Below are positions 2 to 20,446 of a DNA stretch of 64,000 nt, piece by piece (within the stretch, counting starts at the first letter, position 1; every line of letters begins with the position of its first letter). The DNA lies in assembly GCA_965203805.1 (NCBI GenBank), contig OZ241917.1, positions 5,536,001-5,600,000 on the forward strand, in the 5' to 3' direction. This stretch comes from Candidatus Latescibacterota bacterium (GTDB lineage Bacteria; Latescibacterota; UBA2968; GCA-2709665). The position numbers and the translations under genes are program-made. The notes beneath the pieces are model-generated. The model saw only the letters and a list, made by a program, of their open reading frames with translations, was not told where the DNA came from and did no database searches.

Positions 2-568
2 GATCGGTCCGTACACCATCCCAAGGAATCCGAGCAGGCCCACATCGGCATTCTTTTTGCGGCCGCGCCGCGGGGCCACGAGTACTACTATCCCGCCCAG
101 TTGGCGGTGTCCGTACTCTCGGGCAGCGGGTCCAGCCGGCTGTTCACGGAGGTCAGGGAGAAGCGGGGGCTGGCGTACAGTGTCTCGGCCTCTTACCGGG
201 CGCGTCGGGGGGGCGGTCTGATTGCGCTGTACGCCGGCACCACGGCCGAACGCGCGGATGAAACCCTTGCCGTGTGCCGGCGTGAGGTCGGGAGGCTCGC
301 AGAGGACGTGACGCAGGCCGAACTCGACCGGGCGAAGACCGTCCTGAAGGGTCAGTTGTTCACGACCGGCGATTTGCCGGAAGGCCGCGCGGGCAGTATG
401 ATGGACGGCCTGTTTCTGGACGGGCGGCCGCGTTCCATTCACCAGATTGCGGCAGGGATTGACGGCGTGACGCTGGACCTGGTGCCGGCCTGTCTCGATG
501 CGTATCCGCCGTCGCCGGCCACGCTCGTTACACTGGGGCCGCGAGCCCTGGACGTACAGCGTACCTGA
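2..568 (+). CDS. M16 (insulinase/pitrilysin) family peptidase, C-terminal part, 5'-truncated by the window edge
   Basis: Frame is open from base 2. SSRLFTEVREKRGLAYSV is the M16_C signature; the gene is adjacent to a second M16 gene. Confidence 0.88.
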   Translation, partial: DRSVHHPKESEQAHIGILFAAAPRGHEYYYPAQLAVSVLSGSGSSRLFTEVREKRGLAYSVSASYRARRGGGLIALYAGTTAERADETLAVCRREVGRLAEDVTQAELDRAKTVLKGQLFTTGDLPEGRAGSMMDGLFLDGRPRSIHQIAAGIDGVTLDLVPACLDAYPPSPATLVTLGPRALDVQRT

Positions 569-590
569 GCAGAATGACGGGGAGATTTCC

Positions 591-1823
591 ATGCAGTCAA
601 TGTTTTCCACCCACACGCTCGATAACGGTCTTCAACTGGTATTTGAGGCGATTCCCAGGATAAACTCCGCAGCACTGGGATTCTACGTTCATACCGGCTC
701 GCGCGACGAGCCCGCACACCTGGCCGGCGTGTCGCATTTTCTGGAACATATGTGCTTCAAGGGAACGGCAAGCCGGGACTGGCGCCAGCTGAGTCTCGAC
801 GTCGACGATCTGGGTGCGATGTGGAACGCGTATACCTGGTGGGAGGGCACGGCCTATTTTCACTGGGTTCAGAGCGAACGGGCTGCGAATTCGGCGGAAA
901 TCCTGGCCGACATGATGCGGTCCACGCTGCCGGAAGACCAGTTCGACATGGAGAAGAAAGTCATCCTCGAAGAGATCTCGATGTACCGCGATCGGCCCGA
1001 CGCGTTGATTATCGACGAACTGATTCAGGAAGCGTTCGCGGGCCACCCGCTCGGACAGAGCGTACTTGGCACCGAGCACACCGTCGGGTCGATCTCCCGG
1101 GAGCAGATGTCGGGATATTTCGGGGATCGATACGCGCCGGACAACATGTCGTTCGTCGTGACCGGCAGATTCGACCGTGACGAGATGATTCGCGTGGCTG
1201 ACGCGCAATGCGGCGCCTGGAAACCGAGTGAGGCGGCTCGGGAGCAGGTGACGCCGGAATTCCGGCCCTGCAGGCGTGTTCTGGAGCGTCCGAACGTGAT
1301 CCGGGAGCACATCGCCATGGCCTGGCCCGCGCCGTGCGAATCCGATGAATGGGCTGCGACTGCCGATCTGCTTTCCCACTACCTGGGCGCGGCCACCAAC
1401 AGCCGCCTGTTCTGGTCCGTCGTCCAGCAGGGGCTGGCTGACGAGGCGTCGGCTGATTTCTACGGCTTCAGCGACACCGGTCTGTTCTATGTGTACGTCT
1501 CGGTCGACCCGAAGAACGTCTCGCGGGTGCTGGAAATCGTGCAGCGGGAAATCGACGCCCTTAAGCGGGGTGTGGACGGGGAGGCCCTTGCGAGGTCCAG
1601 AACGAGACAGGCGACCGCCCTCGTGATCGGGGGCGAGCACGGCCTCCGGCGGTTCTCGCAGATCGTTGGAAGCCTGAGTACCGGTACGCCGCTGAAAACA
1701 CTGGAAGAGGAGCTGGCCGAGATCGACGCCGTGACGCCGAAACGGGTCGCCGAATACCTGGAGCGTTACCCGCTGGATGGGGAAGCGGCGATGGTCGCGC
1801 TCGGGCCGTTGACATCCATTTGA
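591..1823 (+). CDS. M16 family zinc peptidase (catalytic subunit)
   Basis: Inverted zinc motif HFLEH, GSRDE and NAYT motifs; GGAG RBS before ATG 591. Confidence 0.92.
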   Translation: MQSMFSTHTLDNGLQLVFEAIPRINSAALGFYVHTGSRDEPAHLAGVSHFLEHMCFKGTASRDWRQLSLDVDDLGAMWNAYTWWEGTAYFHWVQSERAANSAEILADMMRSTLPEDQFDMEKKVILEEISMYRDRPDALIIDELIQEAFAGHPLGQSVLGTEHTVGSISREQMSGYFGDRYAPDNMSFVVTGRFDRDEMIRVADAQCGAWKPSEAAREQVTPEFRPCRRVLERPNVIREHIAMAWPAPCESDEWAATADLLSHYLGAATNSRLFWSVVQQGLADEASADFYGFSDTGLFYVYVSVDPKNVSRVLEIVQREIDALKRGVDGEALARSRTRQATALVIGGEHGLRRFSQIVGSLSTGTPLKTLEEELAEIDAVTPKRVAEYLERYPLDGEAAMVALGPLTSI

Positions 1824-1838
1824 ACGGCGACGGACGGG

Positions 1839-3062
1839 TCAGGCGTAGCGGGCGAGGACGTCGTCGAGGGAGCGGGCGGGTTTGAAAAAGGAAAGGACGC
1901 GCAGCAGCACGGCGTCGACAATAGCGTCCGGGCAGGAAGCGCCTGATGTCAGCGCCATGCTCAAGGGACGATTTTCCGGAATCCAGTCCGTCGTCAAGGC
2001 GGTTTTTTTTGTTCCAAGGTTGAAGTGGCGGATCATGGATTCCGAACGGATCTCATCGGCGTCCTTGATGAAATAGGTGGGCATCCGTTCGAGGCAGAGC
2101 TCCACAATGTGCGACGTGTTGGACGAGTTGTAACCGCCGACGACGAGCGCCAGGTCGGCGTCCTGGTCCACCAGGGCATAGGTCGCATTCTGGTTTTCAT
2201 TGGTCGCGTAGCAGAGCGTATCCGACGTGTCGGCGTAGTGATTTTGCAGGTTTGCCTCACCGTAACGGTCCGCGAGGGCTTCGCGGATGACCTCGGCGAT
2301 CTGTCTCGTCTCGGCAGCCAGCATGGTGGTCTGATTGACGATTCCGATGCGCTCGAGGTGCAGGTCCGGATCGAAGCCTTCGGAGCACTTGTGGCCGAAT
2401 CGCGCGAAGAAAGCGTCACGGTCTGAGGCGCCCCGGATGAAGTCGGCGAGAATATGCGTCTCATCCACGTCCATGACCACAACCGTTGGCGCGTTTCGGA
2501 CGCTGTGGGAGAAGGTGGCGCGGGTTTCCTGGTGGGTGTCGTTACCGTGCACGACCACCGAAAATCCCGAATCGCCCAGTTTGGCGCTGCGGTTCCAGAC
2601 CCGCTCCACAAAGGGGCACGTCGTGTTGTAGGTGTAGGCGTCGATACCGCGGGCGGCAAGGGCTTCCTGGATCTCCAGGGTGGTGCCGAACGCGGGCACC
2701 ACAACGATGTCTTCCTGTGAAAAATGTTCCCATGGGATGAGTTGCATTCCGTAGGGGTCGAAAATAAACTCCACGCCCCGGTCCTTCAGGTCGTTGTTGA
2801 CGTTCGAATTGTGAATCATCTCATTGAGGAAATAGATGCGTCGATCCGGGTGCTCGTCCAGGGTCTTGTAAGCGATCTCAATTGCGTTTTCCACCCCGAA
2901 ACAGAACCCGAAGTGCCGGGCCAGCAGAAACCGTACCGGGCCGAAGTCGAGGACCGAAGGCGAGAGGTCCCGTTTGCGCATGTCCTGCATCTGCCTGAAC
3001 GCCTTTACGCGTGAGATAACAGGACTCTTGTAGAAGTCGGGAATGTCGAACTGGCGTGCCAT
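1839..3062 (-). CDS. ispH: 4-hydroxy-3-methylbut-2-enyl diphosphate reductase
   Basis: GFCFGVENA, TCPFV, NQTT, DTLCYAT, VGGYNSSNT and TSGASCPD motifs with three Fe-S cysteines. Confidence 0.95.
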   Translation of the reverse strand: MARQFDIPDFYKSPVISRVKAFRQMQDMRKRDLSPSVLDFGPVRFLLARHFGFCFGVENAIEIAYKTLDEHPDRRIYFLNEMIHNSNVNNDLKDRGVEFIFDPYGMQLIPWEHFSQEDIVVVPAFGTTLEIQEALAARGIDAYTYNTTCPFVERVWNRSAKLGDSGFSVVVHGNDTHQETRATFSHSVRNAPTVVVMDVDETHILADFIRGASDRDAFFARFGHKCSEGFDPDLHLERIGIVNQTTMLAAETRQIAEVIREALADRYGEANLQNHYADTSDTLCYATNENQNATYALVDQDADLALVVGGYNSSNTSHIVELCLERMPTYFIKDADEIRSESMIRHFNLGTKKTALTTDWIPENRPLSMALTSGASCPDAIVDAVLLRVLSFFKPARSLDDVLARYA

Positions 3063-3582: not shown

Positions 3583-3621
3583 TGTCGCGCTTCCTTTCCG
3601 GGCTGGCTTGTCGACGTGTCA

Positions 3622-3650
3622 ATGTTAACCATCGAGTCGCGGGCTGTCAA
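3622..3650 (-). promoter_or_regulatory. Sigma70-type promoter for dut-ispH
   Basis: TTGACA-N17-TAACAT on the minus strand. Confidence 0.6.
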
Positions 3651-3898
3651 TAGTTTTCCTGAAATCAGCGATGGATTCCGTCGAATCGTCCTGCCGTTAT
3701 GGCTTGACTTTCCGGTACCCCGTTGCAATCATATACCGCGTCTGCGACCGGTGCGACAGCGCATACCCGCGGTACCCCGCCGGCGTCCGACGGGCGTTTC
3801 GCGACCACGTGCGGCGCGGGGGTCCGGGCGGGTTTCTTCGACGATCCTCAAACGTCGTGGATGCAGGGTTGAAGTGAGATCCAAAAGGTGAATGAGGG

Positions 3899-5887
3899 AT
3901 GGAAAGTCGATACGAGCAATGGAAGCGTCACCTGCTGCCACTGCCTCACGAGATTGCGATCCAGGGCGATATTGAATGTCGGCCCGAACAGGTTTCGATT
4001 GCGGTAAGGCCCGGAGCGGGCGCGGTCGAGAGGCATGCGGCCGCGACGCTGGAACGCCTGTGCCTGCCTGCAGCGCAGGGCACTGCGCAGGCAGGCGCCG
4101 CCGGCAAAGGCGCGATGCCCGCGCCCGCCGCTTTCGAAGTCTCGATCGGGCTGGTGGAACGCGGTCCGGACGCGGATCTGCTGCGGGGGTTGCCTAATTG
4201 CGGTCAGGCGTATACGATCCGGCCGGAGGGGCGGCGGCGCCTGGCGCTTGCCGCGCTGTCCGAACCCGGAATTTCGTATGCGGCCCGGACGCTCTGCCAA
4301 CTGCTGGAACCAATGCTGACGCCCGGAAGCATCCGCATCCCGCTCGTCTCGGTGACCGATTGGCCGGATCTGGACGAACGCGGCATGTGGAACTTTCCAC
4401 CGCCGGAGGAGTGGATTCCGTGGATGGCGTCGATGAAATTGAACTACGGCAAAATGGCATCCACGGAACTGTCCAGGGTGGCGCGAGGGAAGTCCAACCG
4501 CGCCAGGATCGACGCGGCGCTGATGGAAAAGGCGCGTCTGCTGGGATTTCACTATGTGCCGATGATCACCCATCTGAATTTCCTGCATGAACGCGGCCTG
4601 TACCGCGCCTATCCCGAGTTGGCGGGCAGGGGCGACGGGGCGCTGGCCGGGCGGTATTTCGCCCACAAGCAAGGCAAACAGCATCGAGCGCCCTGCGCAT
4701 CCAATCCTCTGCTTGTGGATATATTGGCCGAGTGGATGTCGGACATCGCGTCCCAGGGCGCGCTGGAGGTGGGCTGCTGGCTGACCGAGCGGCCCGCCCA
4801 GTGTGAATGCGACGATTGCACGTCACGCGGGCAGTTTGTGCTCGAAGCCAGGGCGTTCGTGCGCGCCTGGAAGCGGATGCGCCCCAGATACCCCGAGTTC
4901 AACATTCGCGTGTTTCTCTCGACCACGACATCTGAGCGGGATTACCGGGTCGTGGCGGAGTTGCCGCCAGAGGTCAAGATCGAACGGGCATGCGCAACCG
5001 AAATGGAGCGCGTGCCGCACCTGCCCCGGGATCTCACGGCCAATCCCCTTCTGGATCACCTTGCGTCGCAGGGTCGCTGGATCGCCAGCTACGACGTGCC
5101 GATCAACGCGAACGGAAGGGTGGATACACCCGAATTCAAGGTTCCGCAGTCGTCACCGCATCGGATCCGGGACTACGTGGGTCAGCTGATTCGCAGGCAA
5201 TACAGCGGGGCCTACGGAATGATGGCGTGGGCCACCAGGGGCAAGGAGACGTGCGGGTACAACGTCGCGGCCCTGGCGGAATATTCGTGGAACCTGAACG
5301 GACGCAGCGAAAGGGAGTTCGCCGTGGCTTGGGCCACGCGGGAAGGGTATCGGGACGCCGACGCGTTCGGAGAATGGTCGGAACGGACGGGGCCGGTGGC
5401 GTTCGATGTCTACGATTCGGATTTCCCGATCTGTTATTCCTGGGGCAAAGCGGCTGAGATGATTCGGCGGAAAGAGCGACCGTATCTCGGCGAAGGCATG
5501 TTCCGCTATTTTGAAGATGAACCGGCCTTTGAGCGGAAGGTCGACGCGTGCCGCCAGGCAATCCGGATCGCTTCTGAATTCGAGCGTCCGCATCGCGCGA
5601 ATGAGACACGCGTGGTGATGACCTACGTGGAACTTGCCCGGTGCGTCTATCGCGTCGCGGAACAGGTGGCGACGCGCGACCTGGCTGACGCTGACGTTCA
5701 AACCCAGCTTCATGCCGCGCTTGAATCGCTCGAAAAAGCAGGCCGGGACAACGTTGCGGCGATCCGGAACTGGCGGGCGGCGCTGGGACCGGAACCGTGG
5801 CACGTTCGCGTCCACGATGCGATTCGAGGTACGGAGACAACCGTTGGCGAGATTGCGGGGTTCCTTCGCGATCGATATCTGTATTAA
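3899..5887 (+). CDS. Protein with a GH20-type zincin-like N-terminal domain, putative glycoside hydrolase
   Basis: AYTI..LALAALSEPGISYAARTLCQL..VTDWPDLDERG is typical of the GH20b domain junction; CECDDC motif. Confidence 0.6.
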   Translation: MESRYEQWKRHLLPLPHEIAIQGDIECRPEQVSIAVRPGAGAVERHAAATLERLCLPAAQGTAQAGAAGKGAMPAPAAFEVSIGLVERGPDADLLRGLPNCGQAYTIRPEGRRRLALAALSEPGISYAARTLCQLLEPMLTPGSIRIPLVSVTDWPDLDERGMWNFPPPEEWIPWMASMKLNYGKMASTELSRVARGKSNRARIDAALMEKARLLGFHYVPMITHLNFLHERGLYRAYPELAGRGDGALAGRYFAHKQGKQHRAPCASNPLLVDILAEWMSDIASQGALEVGCWLTERPAQCECDDCTSRGQFVLEARAFVRAWKRMRPRYPEFNIRVFLSTTTSERDYRVVAELPPEVKIERACATEMERVPHLPRDLTANPLLDHLASQGRWIASYDVPINANGRVDTPEFKVPQSSPHRIRDYVGQLIRRQYSGAYGMMAWATRGKETCGYNVAALAEYSWNLNGRSEREFAVAWATREGYRDADAFGEWSERTGPVAFDVYDSDFPICYSWGKAAEMIRRKERPYLGEGMFRYFEDEPAFERKVDACRQAIRIASEFERPHRANETRVVMTYVELARCVYRVAEQVATRDLADADVQTQLHAALESLEKAGRDNVAAIRNWRAALGPEPWHVRVHDAIRGTETTVGEIAGFLRDRYLY

Positions 5888-6083
5888 CCGGAGGCGAACG
5901 GCGCCTTCAGGGAACTAAGCAGCCCGTTGAAAGAGTCCATCCGGGCTGCGTTCGGCCCTTGTGGCCGAAATACGGCGTTGCGCTCCCTCCCCGAATCCAG
6001 GGATTCGCGTCGGTCGCGCGCCTTGTCTTCGGCCACAATGACTCGACCTCGCCTGCAGAGCGACTTTTTCAACGGACTGTTAG

Positions 6084-7139
6084 ATGCCGATTTTGTCGCA
6101 TGAAACCTTAAGAAAATGCGGGTACGCGGTATTTGTCGCCGCCGGGCTGCCGGAAGACCAGGCGCGGATTGTAACCGATCACCTCGTGGATGCGAATCTG
6201 ATGGGCCACGACTCCCACGGCATCCACCGGATGCCCGGCTACGCACGCGGCGTGAAGGCGGGGACGATCAAGCCCGCCGGAAACCATGAAGTGGTTCGGG
6301 AGACGCCGGCTTCCCTGACCATCGACGCCGGCGGAGGAATCGGCATCGTGGTGGCCAATATCGCCATGCGCATGGCGGTAGACCGGGCCCTTCGGCACAC
6401 GCTCGGTGCGGTTGCGGTGCATCGGTCCGGACACATCGGCAGGCTGGGAGACTTTCCGTCCGTTGCGGCGGCGCGCGATTGTATCGGAATCCTGATATTG
6501 AACGGCGGAGGGCGGTTCGCTGCGCCCTTCGGCGGCACCGCCCAGCGGCTGCCCCCCAACCCGATCGCAATCGGCGTCCCCACCCGAGACGGCCCCCCCA
6601 TGACGCTGGATATCACGACCAGTATGGTCGCGGGCGGCAAGGTGGACATCTGCCGTTTGCGGAATCAACGAATGCCCGAAGGCTGGATGGTCGACCTGGA
6701 TGGAAACACCGTCACTGATCCCGAGGAATTCTACGCCGGAAACGCGGCCATGCTGCCCCTGGGAGGCCCGGTGGGCCATAAGGGATACGGTCTGGCAATG
6801 ATGATCGACGCCATCGCGGGCGGACTTTCCTGGGCCGGATGCAGTACGGAGGCGCCCACCCGGGGCGCGAGCGGATTTCTGGCATTGGCAATAAAGATCG
6901 AGAGCTTCGTGGACGTGGACGATTTCAAGTCGGAGGTGGGGAAACTGATCGATTGGGTGAAGTCGTCGCCGAAGATGCCCGGGGTTGAGACGATCTACGT
7001 GCCGGGTGAGATTGAAACGGAGACGCGAAGGGAACGGGAGTCTGAAGGGGTGTATCTGGAGGACGCGACATGGTCGGAGATCCGTTCCGTGGCCGAAGAA
7101 ATGGGCGTACCGGTGACGGAATCGGGCGCCGTGGAATAA
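6084..7139 (+). CDS. Ldh_2 family oxidoreductase (malate/L-lactate/ureidoglycolate dehydrogenase-like)
   Basis: GHDSHG, HIGRLG, PNPIA, LDITTS, GHKGYGL and YVPGE motifs. Confidence 0.92.
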   Translation: MPILSHETLRKCGYAVFVAAGLPEDQARIVTDHLVDANLMGHDSHGIHRMPGYARGVKAGTIKPAGNHEVVRETPASLTIDAGGGIGIVVANIAMRMAVDRALRHTLGAVAVHRSGHIGRLGDFPSVAAARDCIGILILNGGGRFAAPFGGTAQRLPPNPIAIGVPTRDGPPMTLDITTSMVAGGKVDICRLRNQRMPEGWMVDLDGNTVTDPEEFYAGNAAMLPLGGPVGHKGYGLAMMIDAIAGGLSWAGCSTEAPTRGASGFLALAIKIESFVDVDDFKSEVGKLIDWVKSSPKMPGVETIYVPGEIETETRRERESEGVYLEDATWSEIRSVAEEMGVPVTESGAVE

Positions 7140-7160
7140 ACCTCACAATGGAGACCGGGT

Positions 7161-9788
7161 ATGACCGCTCGTCCGGGGTCGGTTGTCAACTTCTGCAAGA
7201 CGGTGTTGCCGCTTCTGCACGGGAAATCGGACGGAAGACGGATTCTTCAGGACGTACGCGAGGTTGTGGCTACCGACCGGTGGAATTCATTCGACCGGTT
7301 CGCGGACACCACGGCGTTTCTTGTGCGTCGTTACGAGGAATCCGGCGCGAAGGCGGAAGTGCATACCATGCGGACCGGCGGAGCCATCGGGTCGGGGCGT
7401 TGGATCATCCACAAGGCCGCGGACGTGCGTTCCGCGACGATGGACGTGATCCGACCGGTGAAAACGCGTGTCCTGGACTACAGAGAGAATCCGTGGCACG
7501 TCATTCAATGGAGCGATGCCACGCCGCCGGGAGGGATGGAGAACGAGTTGGTTGTCGTGGATTCAAAGGAGGCCCTGACCCGGATTCCCGCAGGCGGACT
7601 GGCAGGGAAGTTGGTCCTGACGCGCATGGATCCACGCGGCATGTTGCGGTCCTTCTCGGAGGCCGGCGCGGCGGGGGTGGTCGCCGATCATCCCGTACCG
7701 AATCTGCCCGACGCGACCGCGTGGACGAAATTCGGGTGGGGCGGGGTCCCCATTCAGGATGCGGCCGTCCAGATGGTTGGCCTGGTTTTATCGGAGAACC
7801 AGGGAAAACGCCTGCGACGCCTGCTGCGCAGGCACGGCTCATTGACCGTCCGGACAGACGTGGACATCCGTCACTACCAGGGAACGCACGATCAGGTGAG
7901 CGGGGTTGTGCACGGTGACGCGGATCCCCAGGATGAAGTGTGGGCGCTCGCGCACAGCGCGGAACCCGGTGCAATCGACAATGCGTCGGGGGTGGCGCTG
8001 TGCCTGGAAATCGCGCGTGTCCTCGAGGAACTGATCGCAGCCGGTGAACTGGCGCGGCCCAGACGCACCATACGTCTGCTGAACGCCTACGAGTGTCACG
8101 GGTTTTTCAAGTATCTGGAGGACACACAGCGCCTGCAGACTCCTCTCGCCGGCGTTGTGATCGATTCGGTGGGAAGCAAGCCCTCGGTATGCGGCGGCCG
8201 GATCGAGTGGCATGCCTCAATTCCAATGTCGGCCGGTTTCGTGGACCGTCTGGGCGAGACGATCCTGACGGAAACGCTGCGGCTGCGAAACCCCGGCTAT
8301 CGCCTGTCTATGGAGCCGTTCCAACCCACCTCAGACACGCTCATCGGGGATCCGAAGTATGGATTTCCGTGTCCCTGGCTCACCACGCACCACCATAAGC
8401 CCGGACGGGGATTCGACGCCTACCATTCGTCCGCGGACACGCCGGCTCTGTTAAGCACAAGGGGGCTTGCGGCGTGCGCCACGGCGATGGCGGGATATCT
8501 CTACTGGCTGGCGGACGCAGGCACGGAGGACATCGTCGACGTGGCCGCCGCGGAGACCGCACGGACGATTGACCGGTTAGGGGTGGAGGGCCAGTCGGTT
8601 GCTCAGGTCGAATACGAACGCGAGCAGCATCGCGTGAACCTGGAGAAGCTTCATCGCTGGTTGTGGGGCGGGCGCCGTCGGGACGTTCTGGAGCAGTTCG
8701 CAGGGTACGAGCGCGAGGTTCGGGAGTCCGCGGCGGATGCCGAAAGGGGCAAGAGACGTCCGCGCCGAAGGCGTGTCGAGAGTGCGGACCGGATTCCGAG
8801 GCGCACGCGTGTGTTGTCTCCGATCGGGGAAAACACGCCGCCGGAGATCGCCGGACGTATCAGCAAAACAGGGCTTTCTCCCTGGACGCTGTTCTGGGCG
8901 GATGGCAACCGGACAATTCAGGAGATTTCGCAGGCCGTGGCGTGCGAGACCGGCAACGAAGTGAAAGCGGCGAGCGTCGTCGCTTATTTCGAAGCGCATG
9001 CTGAACTGGGGTACGTGGAGCTTATCGAGAAATCGGAACGGGTGACGCGCGCGAGCCTCGCGGCGGACCTCCGTTCACTGGGTCTGGCCCGTGGCATGGA
9101 CGTGATGGTGCACAGTTCCCTGTCGTCCATCGGGCACGTGGCGGGTGGCGCGGATACGGTGATCCAGGCGTTGCTGGACGTGATCGGAAAGCGCGGCACA
9201 CTGATGATGCCCTCGTTTCACCACCGGGCCGCACAGGTGTACAATCCGATGACGACACCCACGACCAACGGCGCGATCCCCGATGCGTTCTGGCGGCGTC
9301 CCGACGCGGTCAGGAGCGACCATTCCACGCACGCGGTGGCGGCGGTGGGACCCAGAGCCGAGGCCTTCTGCAAGGATCACGGCGGGAAAGGACTGTGGAC
9401 GCCCAACAGCCCCATAGGCCAACTCGTGCACGGAAACGGTCACGTACTCCTGCTTGGCGTCGACCACAATGCCACGACAGCCTACCACGTGGCCGAGTTA
9501 TCGGTGCCCTGTGGATGCATCGACCCTTTCGGCAACTTCTACAGCGTCGTCGCGCCGGACGGGGGCGTGCGGAAGGTCAGGGGGCTGGCGTTCAGATCGG
9601 CGCTGTGTCCGGTGCCGCCGGGCAAGCTGAACAGGGCTCTGGACCGCAGGGGAAAACAGCGCCGTGGAAAAGTGGGCCGGGCGGACTCGTTCTTCGTGCC
9701 CGCAATAGAGGTCTGGAAGGCGCGGCGGGACCATCTGCGGCGCGTTTGTCCGACGTGTGATATCAAACCTCGAATCGATGCGTCATAG
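7161..9788 (+). CDS. Fusion of an M28/DUF4910-like metallopeptidase (PA insert, wHTH) with an AAC(3)-family N-acetyltransferase
   Basis: N-terminal part: AHSAEPGAIDNASG, RRTIRLL..YE, YHSSADT. C-terminal part: VMVHSSLSSIG..GGADTVIQAL, RSDHSTHAVAAVG, LLLGVDH..TTAYHVAE. Confidence 0.8.
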   Translation: MTARPGSVVNFCKTVLPLLHGKSDGRRILQDVREVVATDRWNSFDRFADTTAFLVRRYEESGAKAEVHTMRTGGAIGSGRWIIHKAADVRSATMDVIRPVKTRVLDYRENPWHVIQWSDATPPGGMENELVVVDSKEALTRIPAGGLAGKLVLTRMDPRGMLRSFSEAGAAGVVADHPVPNLPDATAWTKFGWGGVPIQDAAVQMVGLVLSENQGKRLRRLLRRHGSLTVRTDVDIRHYQGTHDQVSGVVHGDADPQDEVWALAHSAEPGAIDNASGVALCLEIARVLEELIAAGELARPRRTIRLLNAYECHGFFKYLEDTQRLQTPLAGVVIDSVGSKPSVCGGRIEWHASIPMSAGFVDRLGETILTETLRLRNPGYRLSMEPFQPTSDTLIGDPKYGFPCPWLTTHHHKPGRGFDAYHSSADTPALLSTRGLAACATAMAGYLYWLADAGTEDIVDVAAAETARTIDRLGVEGQSVAQVEYEREQHRVNLEKLHRWLWGGRRRDVLEQFAGYEREVRESAADAERGKRRPRRRRVESADRIPRRTRVLSPIGENTPPEIAGRISKTGLSPWTLFWADGNRTIQEISQAVACETGNEVKAASVVAYFEAHAELGYVELIEKSERVTRASLAADLRSLGLARGMDVMVHSSLSSIGHVAGGADTVIQALLDVIGKRGTLMMPSFHHRAAQVYNPMTTPTTNGAIPDAFWRRPDAVRSDHSTHAVAAVGPRAEAFCKDHGGKGLWTPNSPIGQLVHGNGHVLLLGVDHNATTAYHVAELSVPCGCIDPFGNFYSVVAPDGGVRKVRGLAFRSALCPVPPGKLNRALDRRGKQRRGKVGRADSFFVPAIEVWKARRDHLRRVCPTCDIKPRIDAS

Positions 9789-14974: not shown

Positions 14975-15191
14975 TCGAAACCCTGTCCCCGCCTTGTCCC
15001 GTCCCGTCCGCATTTCATCGCGGCAGATCGGAGGAGGATGTGGCTTCTACGCCAGGAACATTAAGAAATTGCGGGCAATCGGTCAACCGTCCTCGTCTGC
15101 ATCGTTCCGGAAACCGGCGTAGCGTGGGCGGCGAAAACGAAAGCCGACATCAAAAGACATCGGCATTTATTCGGAGTGATAGCTTACGGCG

Positions 15192-15387
15192 GTGTTAGCG
15201 CCCCAAACACGCAACACTAAAACTGCAATCAATTGCACCGTAGACCAAGAAAGCCAAATTGATCAAAATCATCAATTCTCGCTTTTTTTGGGGCGAACAC
15301 GATAGGTGTCCAAAGACGCTTGTATAGTCGATTTTTAATACCTGATGTCTAAGTAACCAACGGTTCTTCGGCAAAATGGGCTAACAC
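15192..15387. repeat. AT-rich segment bounded by imperfect inverted repeats (possible MITE or IS remnant)
   Basis: GTGTTAGCGCCCCAAA at 15192; TTTGGGGCGAACAC ending 15300; GGGCTAACAC at 15378-15387. Confidence 0.4.
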
Positions 15388-15434: not shown

Positions 15435-18400
15435 TCAGGCCCAAAGCCAATCCAACTCCGAAAAAGCAAGTTTCCGATCGAAGTTCTCGATGTTGTCCCG
15501 AACGTTGAGAATCAGACAGCGGTCGCCGCCACCGTTCAGTGGTCCCCTCAATCCGCGACCGATCATCTGGAAGTATAGGTTCGGGCTGTATACGGGCCGA
15601 GCGACGATTATGGCCCGTGTCTTGGGAGCGTCGAAGCCCTCGCGGAATACCCCATAGTTGACGAGTGCCTTAATCTCTCCACGGCGGAAGTTTTCGACCA
15701 CACGTCGTCGAGTCGCCGTTTCCGTCTCTCCGCTAACTGCACGCGACCGTATTCCCTTCCGGTTGAGGAGTGCTGCCAGCGTCTGCGCATGCTCGACCGA
15801 TGTCGCGAAGATTAGTGTAGACCATTCCGGATCAATACGTGACACATAAGCTTCGATGATGCGTTTGGTTCGCTCGACGCTATGAGCGATGCGCTCTTCC
15901 ACGCTCTGGGGAAGCCAGGGCAGTGCCATCCACTCGTTAAGTGTCCGTGTCAATTCTTCCTTGTCTACCGAGCCATTCAGGATCTCGTCGAGCGGAAACG
16001 TCTCGCCCTCAATGGTCTCATGATCGGCTTGGGCAAGTACGCCCATTTCTTGCAATTCACAGATGACGGCTTCCGGCTCGTCGCTCGCGAACGCTCCCGA
16101 GTCCAGTCGCCTGTTTCCGTAGCGTCGAACGAGTCTCTTCGTCTCCTCTTCGTCGCGTCCGCGATAGGGCGTAGCCGTAAGGCCAAGCATCAGTGGCTCC
16201 TCCACCCGTTGAAAGCGGGTCAATCCGATATCCTCCATGACAGACGTGAAAGTCGGGGCGATTGACCGATGTGCCTCATCGAAAACCACTAGCTTGAAGT
16301 TGGCCAAGAACTCGTACTCATCGGGCTGGTGTGTGAGCCTCGCCTTAAGAGTCTGGATGGTCGCAACGACGACGTGAAGTTCGCTCGTGGGTTGCGGCCT
16401 CTCCAGCCCACCCCACAATCTGGAGATACGTAGCCGAGTCGCCTGTGTGCCGACACTTGACCACACCTGCCGCCATCCTTCCACGGCTTGCTCGCACAGT
16501 TCGTCCCGGTCAGCAACCCAAAGGACGCCGCCAGGGAAGCCGTCATCCCGCATGGCTTCAATGATCGCCTGCACAGCGACCCGGGTTTTTCCGGACCCGG
16601 TCGGCATGCTAATGATCCCTCTCCGATCGGACCCACCCTCCTGTTCGCCAAGCAGCATGTTCCGGACATTGTCGACGACAGTCTGCTGGTAGCCATGAAG
16701 GTCTGGAAGAGAGTACGGACCCTCGATCTCCAGAAAGGGGTCGCGTTTCTGGTCCCGCTCACCGGCCCAATTGGCGGAGAACCCGAGGGACCGCACGAAG
16801 TCCACAGCCCGCTGCGAGCCAGCCCAACGTACCGGCGGGTCGAGACGTTCCAACGCCCACCTGTATTGCTTGAGTGCGTCGGTGTGCCAGGTGGCTATGG
16901 CAGCCTCCGCAATGTCAGTTCCCGCTAGTGTGACGTCGCCACTCTCAAGTATCGATAGAAGAGAATCGGGAAGACTTGAGCGTAGGGCCTGTTCTCCCAC
17001 TGCGGCCAAGAGGCGTTTAGCGTCGGAAGAATGCTGCCGTATCGCGAAGCGTCTCTCCTTGACTTCCTGCGGTGTCCTTCGGTGCAGTATTGCGTCGGTC
17101 TCATTTACGTCAATCCCAAGCTCCAACTCTTCCACGACGAGTTGTAATTTTCGTAGCTCGTCACCAACCGAGTCCGAGATATATATATTGGAGGCATGTA
17201 GAACGCACTCGCGAGGTTGTCCTAGGACGAGTATCCGCTCGCAGCGAATGAGACTGCACGTTCGCCGATACCCAGGAAGGTATTGCCCAAGGCCTGGCCA
17301 GATATCAGTCAATGGGATAGGTTCGTCTTCTACGAAGAATTCCGGCGTCGGCTGCGCCAGATCAAACGCCTTCTTGATATCGTCAGCATTCGAATGGAAA
17401 AGCAGCACGTGCAGTGCTTTCGGACTCTTCGGGTGTGGTCCAAGCGCGTCCTCCAGCGGAACGATCCCGCCGTCGGTTCGGATTCGCCCGTGTTTCCTGA
17501 GCATCTGGACAGTTGGCGATTCGCATTGTAACGATGGACACGGGTTTTGTGTGTCGTGGCGCATCGTCCACGGGCTATAGGTCGTCTCACTTGAAAGCAG
17601 GCTATCCGTGTATCGCGCACTTCCTTCATCGGAGAGAAGACGGAGAACCTCCAACGGTCCGCGACCAATGTTGGTTTCGAAATTCAGTAGATGCGAATGT
17701 GGGTTTCTTTTTAGTTCGCGACTTGTGAAGCGTTCGCGGCACTCTTCCAAGAAACCCGGAAACCATGGTTCTGGCGAAAGGTCGCGACCATCATTGGGCG
17801 TCTCTGCCACACCAAGAGCGCGTAACAGCTCATCGTCGGCTTCATGGAATTCGATGTCCGCAGTAACGTCTTTGTCACGGCTTCCGTCGCCGGGTACGAT
17901 ATCGCCGGGCCGCAGTACGGAATGGAGCGGTCTCCAACCGCCAGCCCTTGTCCGAACCCGGAGTTTCGTAGTCCAGACGTCTACTCCCCTGTCGTTGTTC
18001 TCCCGAATGACGTCCGTAGCGGACTTCGTAGATAACTTACGGGAAGTGGTCCAGAACTCTTGGTGGAGATCGGCACTCAACTCACTATCAGCTCCGCTTC
18101 CGATGATGAGTTCTGCCAGAACCCTGAATCTGGTTTCCCACGATGGCGGCTTAAGTCCGAGTTCCTTGAGCGCCGCAAACGTGTCGTGGTCCGATGCCAG
18201 TTTGGGGTGGACGCACGACGCCGGGCTCTTGGCTCCGTCACCGTTTAGCGACTCACTAGGCAGGAAGAGGTGCTCAGGATCAGGCGACCGCCAATCCCCG
18301 CTCGCCGTTAGAACGATAGCGCCAAGTCTTGCTCCCGATCTCTTTTCAGGCGATATCGCCGCAGCGGTCTGAATCGCCGCCATGGACGCGCTTGCCGCCT

Positions 18401-19952
18401 CATCCGCTTCCTTCCCGTACATAAGTGCCTGCAACCACTCCTCTATGGACGCCCTTGGCGCACCCGAAGATGACAATCCTGGCGGGTTTCCTTCCGTGTG
18501 AAACAGTCGATCGATTCTGGGGAGCCTGATGCGGGTGAGCGCTTTGTGATGAAGCCAATCGCGTGGCCGGTCCGCGTATGCTGCCCACCGTTCGAACGGT
18601 CGTGTATCTATCTGGGGCTCTGAGGTAAGTTCCAACGGAGGATAGAAGATGTTCCCGTGTACATGCAGTTTTCCGTCCTGATCTGGAACGATTTCACGTT
18701 CGTGGAGATCGGAGAACAGGATTCTGCGGAGAAGATTAACCTGGTCGGAATCGGCCCAACCTCGTTCGCGTGGCAAAGCATCCAAGTGTCGCGCAGGATC
18801 GTCGGATGTTGCCAGCCCTGGGAGTGCCTCGGCGATCATTGTCGCGGCGGCTTTGATCAATTCGTCATTGTATGGCCCCGGCAATAGATTTTGACGATCC
18901 TCATTGGTCTTCCATGGCGCATTCAGGATACCGGCAAGGAGGCTTGCGGTCTTGGTCGGAAAGAAAGCCCAGAAGTGTCCGGGGCGATCGAGGCGATCTA
19001 GCGGTACTGCCCACGAGATCGGCACGTTGCCGCTGTCTTTATCTAAGCCCCAGTCGCTTAGTGCTTCGGAAGAAAGGGTATGGGTTGTCTTGAAAAGCCG
19101 CCAATGCGAAGTCTCGTCGCCGGTATCGAGATGGAACTCCTCCTTCCGATGCTGCAACATGAAACTTCGGGAGACTTCTCCACATTCAAGGGTCAGATAA
19201 CGGACATGATCGACGAAAAGCAGAAATTCGGGCGGAAAGTCCCTGATTTGTTTTTCGAGGTCATCTCGCGCACCGGGCTTAAGGGGCAGGCGTACGATGT
19301 TCGTCGCCCAACCCATCAGTTCCTGCATTTCCTCGTCGGCATTCCTCTCAATGTAGGGATCGATAGGTTCCGGCAACCGCAGAACCGGGTATTGATCGGC
19401 TTGCGCGATGTCCGCTATTCTTTTCGCCGAGCGTGTTTTGTCAAACATGAACGAACCAGACCGGCTGTAGAACTCGGGAGCATCCGTTACTCTCAAGACC
19501 GATTTGAAACCTTTCCCGAACCTTCCGATCGCCGAGGTGTTCCGTTTGCTCGACATGCGGTCGAACATGAGCCCCACGATCCCGTCTTCGTCGATGGATT
19601 TTCCATCGTCAGCACAGTATAGGAAGTGTTTCGTCACGCGGATCAGAATGCTTTTCCCTTTTGGAGCGTCAAGTAAAGCGTCCGCGCTGTTTTGGACGAG
19701 TTCGAAGAGCTGCCGTCGAGCATATCCTCCGTGGGCGGTATCATATTCCTGGTTGAAATGCTCGGTTACGTGTCGTGGCTGCACACGGTATGAATCGAGG
19801 GTCTTCTGCGTCTCTTTGACAATGAACTCGGCAAGCGGACCGTCGGGGCCAACCCAAACCGCTTTCTTGTCGAGAGTGGGAAAGCTCACGTTAGCGTTTC
19901 TCTGGGCGAACCTGCCGCGTACACTCTTGGAAAAGTCGTATTCGGTCTTCAT
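15435..19952 (-). CDS. 1505-aa protein: BrnA-like antitoxin N-terminal peptide, sacsin-like GHKL ATPase and C-terminal SF2 (DEAH/ResIII-type) helicase
   Basis: N-terminus MKTEYDFSKSVRGRF. GHKL motifs ELVQNSADA, DDG and IGRFGKGFKSV. Helicase motifs MPTGSGKT, DEAH, LTATP, LIFATSVEHA, FREGFDAP and QMIGRGLR. Confidence 0.88.
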   Translation of the reverse strand: MKTEYDFSKSVRGRFAQRNANVSFPTLDKKAVWVGPDGPLAEFIVKETQKTLDSYRVQPRHVTEHFNQEYDTAHGGYARRQLFELVQNSADALLDAPKGKSILIRVTKHFLYCADDGKSIDEDGIVGLMFDRMSSKRNTSAIGRFGKGFKSVLRVTDAPEFYSRSGSFMFDKTRSAKRIADIAQADQYPVLRLPEPIDPYIERNADEEMQELMGWATNIVRLPLKPGARDDLEKQIRDFPPEFLLFVDHVRYLTLECGEVSRSFMLQHRKEEFHLDTGDETSHWRLFKTTHTLSSEALSDWGLDKDSGNVPISWAVPLDRLDRPGHFWAFFPTKTASLLAGILNAPWKTNEDRQNLLPGPYNDELIKAAATMIAEALPGLATSDDPARHLDALPRERGWADSDQVNLLRRILFSDLHEREIVPDQDGKLHVHGNIFYPPLELTSEPQIDTRPFERWAAYADRPRDWLHHKALTRIRLPRIDRLFHTEGNPPGLSSSGAPRASIEEWLQALMYGKEADEAASASMAAIQTAAAISPEKRSGARLGAIVLTASGDWRSPDPEHLFLPSESLNGDGAKSPASCVHPKLASDHDTFAALKELGLKPPSWETRFRVLAELIIGSGADSELSADLHQEFWTTSRKLSTKSATDVIRENNDRGVDVWTTKLRVRTRAGGWRPLHSVLRPGDIVPGDGSRDKDVTADIEFHEADDELLRALGVAETPNDGRDLSPEPWFPGFLEECRERFTSRELKRNPHSHLLNFETNIGRGPLEVLRLLSDEGSARYTDSLLSSETTYSPWTMRHDTQNPCPSLQCESPTVQMLRKHGRIRTDGGIVPLEDALGPHPKSPKALHVLLFHSNADDIKKAFDLAQPTPEFFVEDEPIPLTDIWPGLGQYLPGYRRTCSLIRCERILVLGQPRECVLHASNIYISDSVGDELRKLQLVVEELELGIDVNETDAILHRRTPQEVKERRFAIRQHSSDAKRLLAAVGEQALRSSLPDSLLSILESGDVTLAGTDIAEAAIATWHTDALKQYRWALERLDPPVRWAGSQRAVDFVRSLGFSANWAGERDQKRDPFLEIEGPYSLPDLHGYQQTVVDNVRNMLLGEQEGGSDRRGIISMPTGSGKTRVAVQAIIEAMRDDGFPGGVLWVADRDELCEQAVEGWRQVWSSVGTQATRLRISRLWGGLERPQPTSELHVVVATIQTLKARLTHQPDEYEFLANFKLVVFDEAHRSIAPTFTSVMEDIGLTRFQRVEEPLMLGLTATPYRGRDEEETKRLVRRYGNRRLDSGAFASDEPEAVICELQEMGVLAQADHETIEGETFPLDEILNGSVDKEELTRTLNEWMALPWLPQSVEERIAHSVERTKRIIEAYVSRIDPEWSTLIFATSVEHAQTLAALLNRKGIRSRAVSGETETATRRRVVENFRRGEIKALVNYGVFREGFDAPKTRAIIVARPVYSPNLYFQMIGRGLRGPLNGGGDRCLILNVRDNIENFDRKLAFSELDWLWA

Positions 19953-20236
19953 TATCGAGACTCGTATTGGCGTCGCTCGTTTTGGGTGGCGACGCGAGCT
20001 GAGATTATCCTTATTGTCGGTTTTTCGTCGTCGAACTCAGCATCAGTGTGACATACCACGAGTAGGCGACCGTCACGAGCATATCCCATGGTTACCCAGC
20101 GTTCCTCGAACTGACTGTGATCGTCGTCTGGAATTGACTTTGAGAGCGGATCCAGGAGGACCGCTGCGGCAAGTTCGAAGCTCACACTATGCTTCCGTAG
20201 ATTGCTCGCTGCCTTGGCTGGATCCCAATCGAACAT
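19952..20236 (-). CDS. brnT: BrnT family ribonuclease toxin
   Basis: FDWDPAKAASNLRKH.VSF, D..HS..EERW.T.G and IRIISAR.AT..ER..YE; TAATG overlap with the downstream gene. Confidence 0.93.
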   Translation of the reverse strand: MFDWDPAKAASNLRKHSVSFELAAAVLLDPLSKSIPDDDHSQFEERWVTMGYARDGRLLVVCHTDAEFDDEKPTIRIISARVATQNERRQYESR

Positions 20237-20446
20237 ACGATTCCATTCAAAGCGGCGAACGATCTGCGGATTGGCTTATGCTTGACGCGATGGGCTGTGC
20301 TACAAGGAATGGATTCGCACGCGAAAGGAAAAAAGGTATCGCAACGTCTATTCACAGTAGGGACTTGCAAAGGGCTACTACTGCGTCCCGCGTCGGGAGC
20401 CGAGGACAATGCGGTAAATTGGAACGAGTGCACCGCTAGAGCGGAA

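Follow-up and report, generated by a model that had tools for sequence, protein, structure and literature searches.

The BrnT/BrnA type II toxin-antitoxin (TA) module was reportedly described by Heaton et al. in 2012 (as cited in PMC11980606). In modules of this kind the toxin gene stands first, its stop codon overlaps the start codon of the next gene, and the partner carries an EYDFS..RG motif in its N-terminal part. Here, we describe a locus with the same layout and a toxin of the same BrnT family in a stretch of 64,000 nucleotides, hereafter called the window, from the genome of a Candidatus Latescibacterota bacterium (contig OZ241917.1, positions 5,536,001 to 5,600,000 of the forward strand). 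Whereas the antitoxin of BrnT/BrnA modules is small, labile and autoregulating, the partner encoded in the window is a protein of 1505 amino acids (aa), in which the DNA-binding and dimerisation domain appears to be replaced by a 1480-aa ATPase-helicase.

The ATPase-helicase part resembles a described group of proteins. Tiamat unites an ATPase with a single-stranded DNA nuclease (ssDNase), and its anti-phage activity depends on the ATPase site, according to the main text of a preprint of October 2026 (10.64898/2026.09.30.754977). Tiamat-like proteins swap the C-terminal PD-(D/E)xK nuclease for other modules; their type III-A, which is bacterial, has a UvrB-like helicase of superfamily 2 (SF2) (10.64898/2026.09.30.754977). 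In GHL proteins, the same preprint states, the clamp is closed by ATP-driven dimerisation of the N-terminal domains. The window protein shares with Tiamat and with type III-A a sacsin/Hsp90-like GHL ATPase and a long middle region, followed by an SF2 helicase at the position of the nuclease (10.64898/2026.09.30.754977). Unlike the window protein, Tiamat proper has a DUF3883 PD-(D/E)xK nuclease, and its DUF3684 is undetected in the window protein. The preprint also presents a RelE-like example in type I-K, but there the domain forms part of a neighbouring helicase by fusion, instead of being a separate toxin on a peptide tether; in the main text, as distinct from the supplements, BrnT does not occur, no antitoxin-derived N-terminal peptide is described, and the word antitoxin appears once, in another context (10.64898/2026.09.30.754977).

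In concept, the mechanism proposed below has several forerunners. In PARIS, the AriA ATPase is said to hold the AriB toxin, and the PrrC anticodon nuclease is reportedly a latent RNase that is masked by the EcoprrI type I restriction complex, an SF2 translocase, and unleashed when a phage inhibits this complex. The families of the PrrC system are unrelated to those of the window, and its masking is said to involve no recognisable antitoxin segment. Both PARIS and the NetFlax network share with our proposal a large ATPase that is both sensor and antitoxin to a nuclease toxin freed on infection, but their proteins are unrelated to the ones described here (ABC/AAA ATPase, Toprim toxin) and bear no antitoxin-derived peptide tag. 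The ATPase 'antitoxins' of NetFlax are presented in PMC10440598, passages of which mention neither BrnT nor a helicase. The closest observation in print concerns RtcR-associated CoCoNuT systems, which often have co-directional BrnT-like genes immediately upstream, read as a programmed-cell-death arm (PMC11090510). Unlike the window, these systems have a McrBC-type partner, and the passages that treat them report no fusion of an antitoxin peptide (PMC11090510).

Each component has thus been described before: the family of the toxin, the motif of the antitoxin and the class of the ATPase-helicase. What we have not found in print is the tagging of a large ATPase-helicase at its N-terminus with an antitoxin segment, or the recurrence of such tagging with another toxin family and on other defence proteins. 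Passages of a 2025 survey of RelE/ParE-superfamily toxins mention neither helicase nor sacsin, the word Tiamat is absent from the 2022 preprint of the Millman study, and in main texts and passages, as distinct from supplementary neighbourhood tables, we found no literature in which a sacsin- or Tiamat-like helicase is connected with BrnT or with an antitoxin peptide.

An antitoxin-like segment begins the protein encoded after brnT

The locus comprises the following features.
19952 to 20236, minus strand: brnT (stop codon included), 94 aa, a BrnT-family toxin and, by family, a predicted RelE-fold (BECR) RNase
19950 to 19954, minus strand: TAATG overlap of the brnT stop (TAA, 19954 to 19952) and the large-gene start (ATG, 19952 to 19950), which share one base; read as translational coupling
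15435 to 19952, minus strand: large gene, 1505 aa and no internal stop, encoding an antitoxin-like peptide, a GHL ATPase, a middle region and an SF2 helicase
19872 to 19952, minus strand: antitoxin-like peptide and proposed BrnT dock, residues 1-27, of BrnA/CopG type (MKxEYDFSxxxRGRF), with homology spanning residues 1-19
18795 to 19787, minus strand: GHL ATPase (Bergerat fold) and transducer-like domain, residues 56-386, with E84/N88/D91, D115xG117 and G143..G148
16701 to 18794, minus strand: middle region, residues 387-1084, conserved, without a Pfam match at E up to 0.1 and with a predicted model confidence mostly between 80 and 95
15534 to 16700, minus strand: SF2 helicase/translocase core, residues 1085-1473, with Walker A PTGSGKT at 1117-1123, DEAH at 1225-1228 and motif VI QMxGRGLR

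A first-pass annotation of this DNA, made from its sequence alone, had proposed that BrnT is guarded by an antitoxin peptide fused to a giant ATPase-helicase. The stop/start overlap on which it relied is present in the window sequence, and its description of a reading frame that runs without a stop into a sacsin-like ATPase, a long middle region and an intact SF2 helicase holds in all details that we checked. The upstream product matches the Pfam family BrnT_toxin (PF04365) over the entire profile (89.2 bits, where the cut-off is 34.5; E 2.2e-25; positions 1-77 of 77) as well as the PDB entry 7vd7, annotated as 'toxin' (E 3.8e-14). The large protein starts MKTEYDFSKSVRGRF (MKTEYDFSKSVRGRFAQRNANVSFP). 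Neither in its 1505 aa nor in its first 50 residues did Pfam detect a ribbon-helix-helix (RHH), BrnA (PF14384) or CopG (PF12441) domain, and the small open reading frames (ORFs) at 20182-20433 and 15195-15374, both on the minus strand, matched no antitoxin family, in agreement with the claim that a separate antitoxin gene is absent.

A trivial explanation would be that the fusion arose by a recent deletion, frameshift or misassembly in a single genome. We give this practically no chance. Contigs from four runs in four studies, with organism A, sponge, coral and marine metagenomes as sources, bridge positions 19950-19954; one of them is identical to the window and may be its source, another has 2 differences and a third has 21 differences and an upstream 1-base insertion, so that two of the bridging contigs carry sequence differences of their own. 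The N-terminus is also shared widely. A homology search with the large protein returned at least 1514 matches at E <=0.001 among 8000 candidates scored, and the motif MKxEYDFSxxxRG(R/K)F starts 109 of the best 120 (1362-1561 aa), at least three of the other 11 being N-terminally truncated gene calls; at the DNA level the peptide is found in 32 of 80 related loci. Together, these homologues, loci and bridging contigs rule out an artefact or a singleton, which the first-pass annotation had named as grounds for dismissing the fusion.

The same annotation had stated that small antitoxins encoded after BrnT commonly begin with a motif of this kind. Indeed, this is what we found in 25 of 33 BrnT loci, a non-random sample made up of the 30 best-scoring loci of the same phylum as the window and the window genome's own: a small downstream partner with EY(D/N/R)(F/L/R) near its N-terminus, of the type (K/R)xEYD(F/L)S..RG(K/R). 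C-terminal to the motif, these partners have either an RHH/CopG module or a '..LDPDV..FP..VN.ALR' module. The window genome itself has five BrnT loci, the four further ones (L001, L003, L004, L005) with three partner types. In L001, BrnT is followed by a 72-77-aa protein, MRDHYDFSEMEGRKNPY...RHH, that matches BrnA_antitoxin (6.7e-9) and CopG_antitoxin (4.8e-7), and the partner in L003 contains ...RPEYRRGDLGPGVRGKY...; the BrnT of L004 is interrupted by TGA. When 33 N-termini of the large protein and its homologues (alignment A7) were compared by hhalign with 21 antitoxins that partner BrnT (alignment A6), the two aligned over columns 1-19 with a probability of 97% and an E-value of 7.7e-11, in line with the first-pass claim of a grafted peptide without an RHH domain. 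Invariant or nearly so among the 33 N-termini are M1, Y5, F7, G13 and F15, together with E4, D6, S8 and R12. Beside BrnT, the motif is carried by RHH/CopG proteins, by proteins with the '..LDPDV..FP..VN.ALR' module, by PbeA, by a PD-(D/E)xK-like protein and by the Tiamat-like helicase. Because the motif is constant beside BrnT while the C-terminal module varies, we take the motif to be the toxin-binding part.

An AlphaFold2 (AF2) model of residues 1-1085 of the large protein, built from a 76-row alignment, has a mean predicted confidence (pLDDT) of 86.1. Residues 1-23 fall below 50 (approximately 38) and are predicted to be disordered, the first confident helix beginning at residue 39. A disordered tail, as modelled, agrees with antitoxin segments that fold on binding. 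We also folded the joined BrnT-peptide frame of a decayed copy (L066; 148 aa, two-residue linker, alignment of 25 BrnTs with no peptide rows); in this model the BrnT part exceeded a pLDDT of 94 and formed a mixed alpha/beta core, and the peptide reached 41-54 without confident docking. PDB searches found no solved complex of BrnT with an EYDFS-type partner. On its own account we mention that MAFFT laid the EYDFSK of the peptide over the N-terminal FEWDPAK strand of BrnT, the two sharing the pattern E-aromatic-D-x-small-K; this may be chance, or the tail may mimic or pair with the toxin's first strand. Overall, the reading of the N-terminus as an antitoxin tether is well supported by these comparisons, and we consider it likely that the peptide is a tether that neutralises BrnT.

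The large protein fits the Tiamat-like type III-A class

By architecture, the window protein fits the Tiamat-like type III-A class, an assignment made from the domains and not by the HMM (hidden Markov model) score that the authors of the class use. Its N-terminal part is matched by the PADLOC profile of TmtA, the Tiamat protein, over residues 41-437 and the N-terminal 400 profile positions (E 2.4e-53), and by the NCBIfam family P_loop_sacsin over residues 80-162 (57.1 bits against a cut-off of 50). The helicase region, residues 1085-1470, matches the Pfam families ResIII (7.6e-27), DEAD (1.9e-17) and Helicase_C (1e-14). In 30 homologues, the ATPase motif residues (E84, N88, D91, D115, G117 and G143-G148) and the helicase motifs (PTGSGKT, DEAH, TATP and QMxGRGLR) are invariant. 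Comparison of the modelled ATPase with known folds by VIA-align gave Z-scores of 14.3 for SMCHD1, 14.2 for GRP94, 13.8 for TRAP1 (Foldseek E 1.2e-6), 13.5 for sacsin SR1 (rmsd 3.0 over 171 residues), 12-13 for MORC2/3 and 11.6 for MutL and ParE; matches found with the whole 1085-residue model were dominated by the ATPase module. At the C-terminus, where the Pfam scan places the SF2 helicase, there is no DUF3883 PD-(D/E)xK nuclease, and for this reason we do not file the protein as Tiamat proper. DUF3684 had no Pfam match in the large protein at E up to 0.1, and TmtA profiles align only to about residue 516. The suggestion that the large protein is of a new kind is therefore not borne out, since it fits a published class.

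The N-terminus varies across the wider family of this ATPase-helicase core. Most members begin approximately 30 residues ahead of the ATPase, without a toxin-related segment. Many Chloroflexota homologues have, at the place where antitoxin peptides are grafted, a tail of 25-60 residues extremely rich in lysine and arginine (MAKRKK..RRRR..), encoded in L039, L044, L047, L050, L051, L053, L054, L055, L058, L061 and L062 (approximately 100-150 nt before position 4001 of each locus) and present in proteins P0253, P0255, P0256, P0259, P0260, P0275, P0276 and P0371; nucleic-acid binding is one possibility for its role. Five other proteins (P0254, P0306, P0312, P0321, P0372) have N-terminal domains of 100-290 residues ahead of the ATPase. 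From these sequences, the N-terminus of the helicase family looks like a hot spot for add-ons.

brnT and the peptide are inherited together

We confirmed 465 relatives (one genome per species) and examined the best 80, in 78 of which the status of peptide and BrnT could be judged; the exceptions are L052, where the match begins at residue 306, and L056, which runs into a contig end. A search for further, independent loci had been suggested in the first-pass annotation as a check, and it was answered clearly: 32 of the 80 have the peptide, and in 22 of these an intact brnT lies directly upstream. With the window BrnT as query, tblastn gave a match abutting the large gene's start in 28 of the 80 loci, every one of them peptide-bearing; the 48 loci that lack the peptide gave none. 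A four-base overlap joins the two genes in 21 of the 22 intact loci (ATGA, with TTGA in L019), and a short spacer separates them in L059. Beyond these two, no neighbouring gene is conserved over the 80 loci. In the 32 loci with the peptide, brnT is found in the following states.
Intact, with canonical start: 22 loci
Full-length frame with AGG or CTG at the start codon: 2 loci (L006, L037)
Frameshifted: 2 loci (L020, L025)
In-frame stop: 1 locus (L028)
C-terminal remnant alone (...IRIISARP..RRQYE): 3 loci (L018, L027, L030)
Start and stop lost, in frame with a frameshifted large gene: 1 locus (L066)
Absent, the large gene being interrupted by approximately 1.6 kb: 1 locus (L067)

A FastTree phylogeny of 77 large proteins, from which the interrupted frames of L023, L026, L052 and L066 were omitted and the peptide columns removed by a 50% fill filter, placed 30 peptide-bearing helicases in a single clade, starred in the tree, with a support of 99. 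This clade spans Pseudomonadota, Acidobacteriota, Gemmatimonadota, Spirochaetota and Binatota. Two other peptide-bearing proteins (L036, L046) were placed elsewhere with weak support. In a tree of BrnT proteins, 25 toxins of the module, those of L036 and L046 among them, formed a single group (SH-aLRT 92). Given one helicase clade and one BrnT group, we conclude that toxin, peptide and helicase are inherited or transferred as a unit, and by these trees the unit had one origin or at most two. The claim that the fusion is conserved and co-inherited with brnT is thus upheld by the related loci and by both phylogenies. These loci are kin and do not count as independent cases: within the helicase family, the joint occurrence of peptide and brnT reflects one or two acquisitions. 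What lends it weight is that it was retained across transfers, together with the independent grafts described below.

The module also decays, and it does so asymmetrically. The genus is represented by 15 genomes: the gene is full-length in three and decayed in two, and the other ten have weak matches to the helicase domain alone. Both decayed copies (L118, L119) retain an intact brnT, and their large gene starts MKTEYDFSKG.RGRFF, reaches a stop at about codon 418-427 and is deleted or scrambled thereafter. Among the peptide loci, it is common to find the large gene intact next to a broken brnT, whereas an intact brnT with a partner that has no peptide was not seen among the examined loci and genus copies. 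Such asymmetry would be expected of a toxic BrnT whose antidote is the N-terminal part of the large protein. The interruptions in L066 (position ~5230; frameshift at ~codon 405), L118 (~2545; stop at ~418) and L119 (~2550; stop at ~427) all lie just past the ATPase-transducer module, and the shared site may be a domain boundary that tolerates truncated products, or a coincidence.

These data also bear on the possibility that BrnT is a non-toxic accessory, for example an RNA-binding or RNA-processing cofactor, for which the peptide would be an assembly tag, with no release. BrnT-like proteins beside CoCoNuT are described as not having all residues needed for toxicity (PMC11090510), and purifying selection on the module BrnTs is not very strict, with a median pairwise dN/dS of 0.24 and a maximum of 0.58 (143 pairs, restricted to dS 0.05-2.5). 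Selection of this kind also speaks, indirectly, for a toxin; among 23 aligned module BrnTs, 13 columns are invariant and 21 nearly so. On the other hand, the module toxin scores on the full Pfam profile like the canonical paralogues of the window genome (88.5 bits versus 81-97.5 bits). Moreover, in the BrnT tree the module BrnTs nest among those of ordinary TA pairs, and a harmless BrnT would hardly account for the peptide-bearing fragment that L118 and L119 have kept next to an intact brnT. We therefore regard an accessory role as improbable, and read BrnT as a probable toxin.

Antitoxin segments on other toxins' partners and on other enzymes

In two loci from Dehalococcoidia (L043, L057), an orthologous helicase is preceded by a different toxin, a 96-aa Gp49/HigB-like protein (PF05973, 1.4e-6 and 6.1e-6, both above the cut-off). 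Residues 6-50 of the L043 helicase align with positions 2-46 of the 90 in PF21716, 'probable addiction module antidote' (9.2e-6; 25.9 bits, below the cut-off of 27), so that the tail corresponds to the N-terminal half of this family without its helix-turn-helix half. The N-terminus of the L057 helicase resembles that of L043 by eye, and L074, in the same small clade, has retained a remnant of a toxin gene. Neither the L043 toxin nor the N-terminal segment had a direct sequence match in the PDB. In the solved VcHigB2/HigA2 pair, a disordered N-terminal segment of the antitoxin alone neutralises the toxin (passages of PMC5416850). Like L043 and L057, VcHigBA2 has the toxin first, and an N-terminal segment of the neutralising type is the part grafted onto the helicase; its toxin family differs from that of the window, and the VcHigA2 result is extended to L043 and L057 through Pfam family membership only.

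Grafts of the BrnT-type motif, in turn, occur on proteins other than the helicase. In three of the 33 BrnT loci, the partner is long and starts with the motif: a 775-aa PbeA, a 544-aa PD-(D/E)xK-like protein and a 225-aa protein without a family. The first of these (L116 of genome G018; 5989-8316 and 3593-5734, both minus strand) has BrnT, then a PbeA starting ..ELRPEYDLRTLQVRKVGP.., then PbeC. This PbeA unites a PLD nuclease and an SF2 helicase, belongs to Pbe/Dnd-type defence and matches the PADLOC family with E 7e-197 over residues 91-760; the motif N-terminus is present in 5 of the best 120 PbeA clusters (P0123-P0125, P0133, P0144). The second (L115 of genome G124; 359-1993, plus strand) follows BrnT and begins MKQEYDFSKAVRGKFFREGAELQLP, near the consensus of the helicase family; its domain matches are weak (PDDEXK_4 0.0015, PDC-S26 4.4e-8). 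The BrnT of L115 is sister to the module BrnTs in the BrnT tree; the tag may have passed from L115 or to it.

Surroundings of the locus

Three further features of the window are the following.
20237 to 20446, minus strand: upstream non-coding stretch; synteny with the contigs of other strains ends at 20446, the likely edge of an inserted module
15143 to 15164, minus strand: terminator-like hairpin of 9 pairs followed by a T-rich tail, approximately 270 nt past the large-gene stop; a candidate operon end by consensus match only
7161 to 9788, plus strand: an 875-aa ORF with an M28 peptidase-like region and a C-terminal aminoglycoside 3-N-acetyltransferase-family domain (PF02522, 2.3e-47)

Contigs from two other studies (runs X3 and X7) match the window rightward from 20446 and continue leftward in unrelated sequence, and the 30-nt alternative flank from 20446 was not found elsewhere within the window. 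From these junctions, the brnT-helicase module seems to be an insertion with its right edge approximately 210 nt upstream of brnT. A simple scan found no sigma-70-like promoter upstream of brnT. The ORF at 7161-9788 is an unusual fusion that is unrelated to the brnT-helicase finding.

Within the collection sampled, the helicase family shows a striking concentration in metagenome-assembled genomes that come from many phyla and are associated with sponges or corals (Poriferihabitaceae, Spongiisocius, Poriferisodalis), which suggests horizontal spread within this habitat. In L064 (8554-12345, plus strand), and also downstream in L022 and L067, the helicase gene adjoins a gene for a 1263-aa AAA_30/UvrD_C_2 protein, a superfamily 1 (SF1) helicase with the N-terminus ..RVPWHDAGWNG.., which is possibly a further defence gene.

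A possible mechanism and its alternatives

A plausible explanation for these observations would be a two-gene operon in which brnT, for a RelE-fold RNase toxin, is translationally coupled to a Tiamat-like GHL-ATPase/SF2-helicase whose first 20-27 residues or so would be the toxin-binding segment of a BrnA/CopG-type antitoxin, the ribbon-helix-helix domain of that antitoxin having given way to the 1480-aa ATPase-helicase. The large protein would then be antitoxin and sensor at once, keeping BrnT bound and silent on an N-terminal leash. As the tail would stand directly ahead of the GHL domain, which is expected to dimerise on ATP binding, engagement of nucleic acid by the helicase or clamp, or else inactivation or degradation of the protein during infection, could reposition or free it. 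Released BrnT would cleave RNA and arrest the infected cell, an abortive-infection arm added to a core that can act alone. The binding and neutralisation of BrnT, the trigger, the release and an anti-phage function are what we infer from gene comparisons and predicted structures, and the release step is conjecture. Taken as a whole, this explanation of a coupled operon, an antitoxin leash and release as abortive infection seems to us somewhat more probable than its negation. A connection with defence is suggested by the TmtA match, by the experimentally supported anti-phage activity of Tiamat, whose relatives exchange the nuclease for helicases, and by the BrnT-like genes upstream of CoCoNuT systems.

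Several observations weigh against it. Most of the core family has no toxin: among 514 representatives (50% identity, E<=1e-30), most of the 150 listed have neither toxin nor peptide, and an EYDF-type N-terminus is found in 5 of the 121 examined, which are those with the GGY anchor. Of the 78 judged loci, 46 have neither peptide nor BrnT; the ATPase-helicase core therefore works without the toxin, and on these comparisons BrnT is an add-on and not an obligatory effector, so that the first-pass suggestion of BrnT as the helicase's effector has to be qualified. In 10 of the 32 peptide loci brnT is broken, reduced, absent or without a canonical start, from which we conclude that it is dispensable and possibly costly. 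As to context, the module in the window has a region with an hflX-like GTPase on one side and an RND efflux operon on the other, with no recognisable defence island in the window, and few of 87 large ORFs flanking 47 related loci match PADLOC families (Orf5 3, HEC-06 3, mREase_IV 2, SspE 2, mad3 2). Approximately 14% of Tiamat-like proteins stand in non-defence contexts according to the main text of the preprint (10.64898/2026.09.30.754977), and the anti-phage role of type III-A proteins is itself putative. Finally, in Pez-Ham, a type II TA attached, as in the window, to a helicase-based defence system, PezAT represses Hachiman expression and is not needed for defence (PMC13064477). Both TA genes of Pez-Ham are complete, whereas the antitoxin of the window has no DNA-binding domain, and because this domain is lost, expression control in the manner of Pez-Ham is unlikely here.

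Much of this would also follow if the pair were a selfish TA module whose antitoxin became fused to a large neighbouring gene, a pair that would only stabilise the locus, or travel along with it in horizontal transfer, and take no part in the function of the ATPase-helicase. A core family mostly without toxins, the loss of or damage to brnT in those ten loci, a setting with no defence island and few PADLOC matches, and the precedent of a TA that defence does not need (PMC13064477) all favour hitch-hiking of this kind. So does the abundance of BrnT, present, often in several copies each, in 94 of 151 genomes sampled from the phylum, which makes chance capture plausible, and so do L118 and L119, which have kept brnT and the peptide-bearing N-terminal fragment while losing the helicase, as addiction predicts. 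Classical addiction, however, needs a labile antitoxin and autoregulation, while in this locus no DNA-binding domain is left and the peptide belongs to a protein of 1505 aa. Furthermore, the module was kept through transfers over five phyla, and the grafts recur, with a second toxin family on the helicase and with BrnT on PbeA and a PD-(D/E)xK-like protein. All recipients are nucleic-acid-acting proteins of defence type, which points to functional coupling over random capture. We thus consider pure addiction unlikely, albeit deserving of serious attention, and continue to favour the leash.

In summary, the first-pass interpretation survives as far as the graft and its conservation with brnT are concerned, and calls for correction where it took the large protein for a new kind and BrnT for the helicase's effector. 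That the module is a defence system with released BrnT as its effector falls, in our estimate, just short of an even chance. A broader proposal, which we offer tentatively and with slightly less assurance, is that N-terminal segments of antitoxins serve as portable docking tags on defence enzymes (Tiamat-like proteins, PbeA, PD-(D/E)xK proteins), tethering RelE-fold toxins (BrnT, Gp49/HigB) whose RNase would be freed by an ATP- or DNA-driven cycle or by inactivation by phage, and that such modules have spread horizontally among sponge- and coral-associated bacteria.

Implications

If the proposed mechanism is correct, a leash of approximately 20 residues taken from an antitoxin would join TA modules to ATPase/helicase defence, and toxins that have no sensor of their own would become responsive to infection. 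This would be a modular and general way to bolt a suicide effector onto a sensor. It would also supply a signature, namely an antitoxin N-terminus that starts a large protein encoded after a toxin gene, with which systems of guarded effectors could be found. The module offers a minimal pair of peptide and toxin that is easy to test in E. coli. For the Tiamat-like GHL ATPases, to which plant NO VEIN and human sacsin are related, BrnT would be the first testable partner and read-out.

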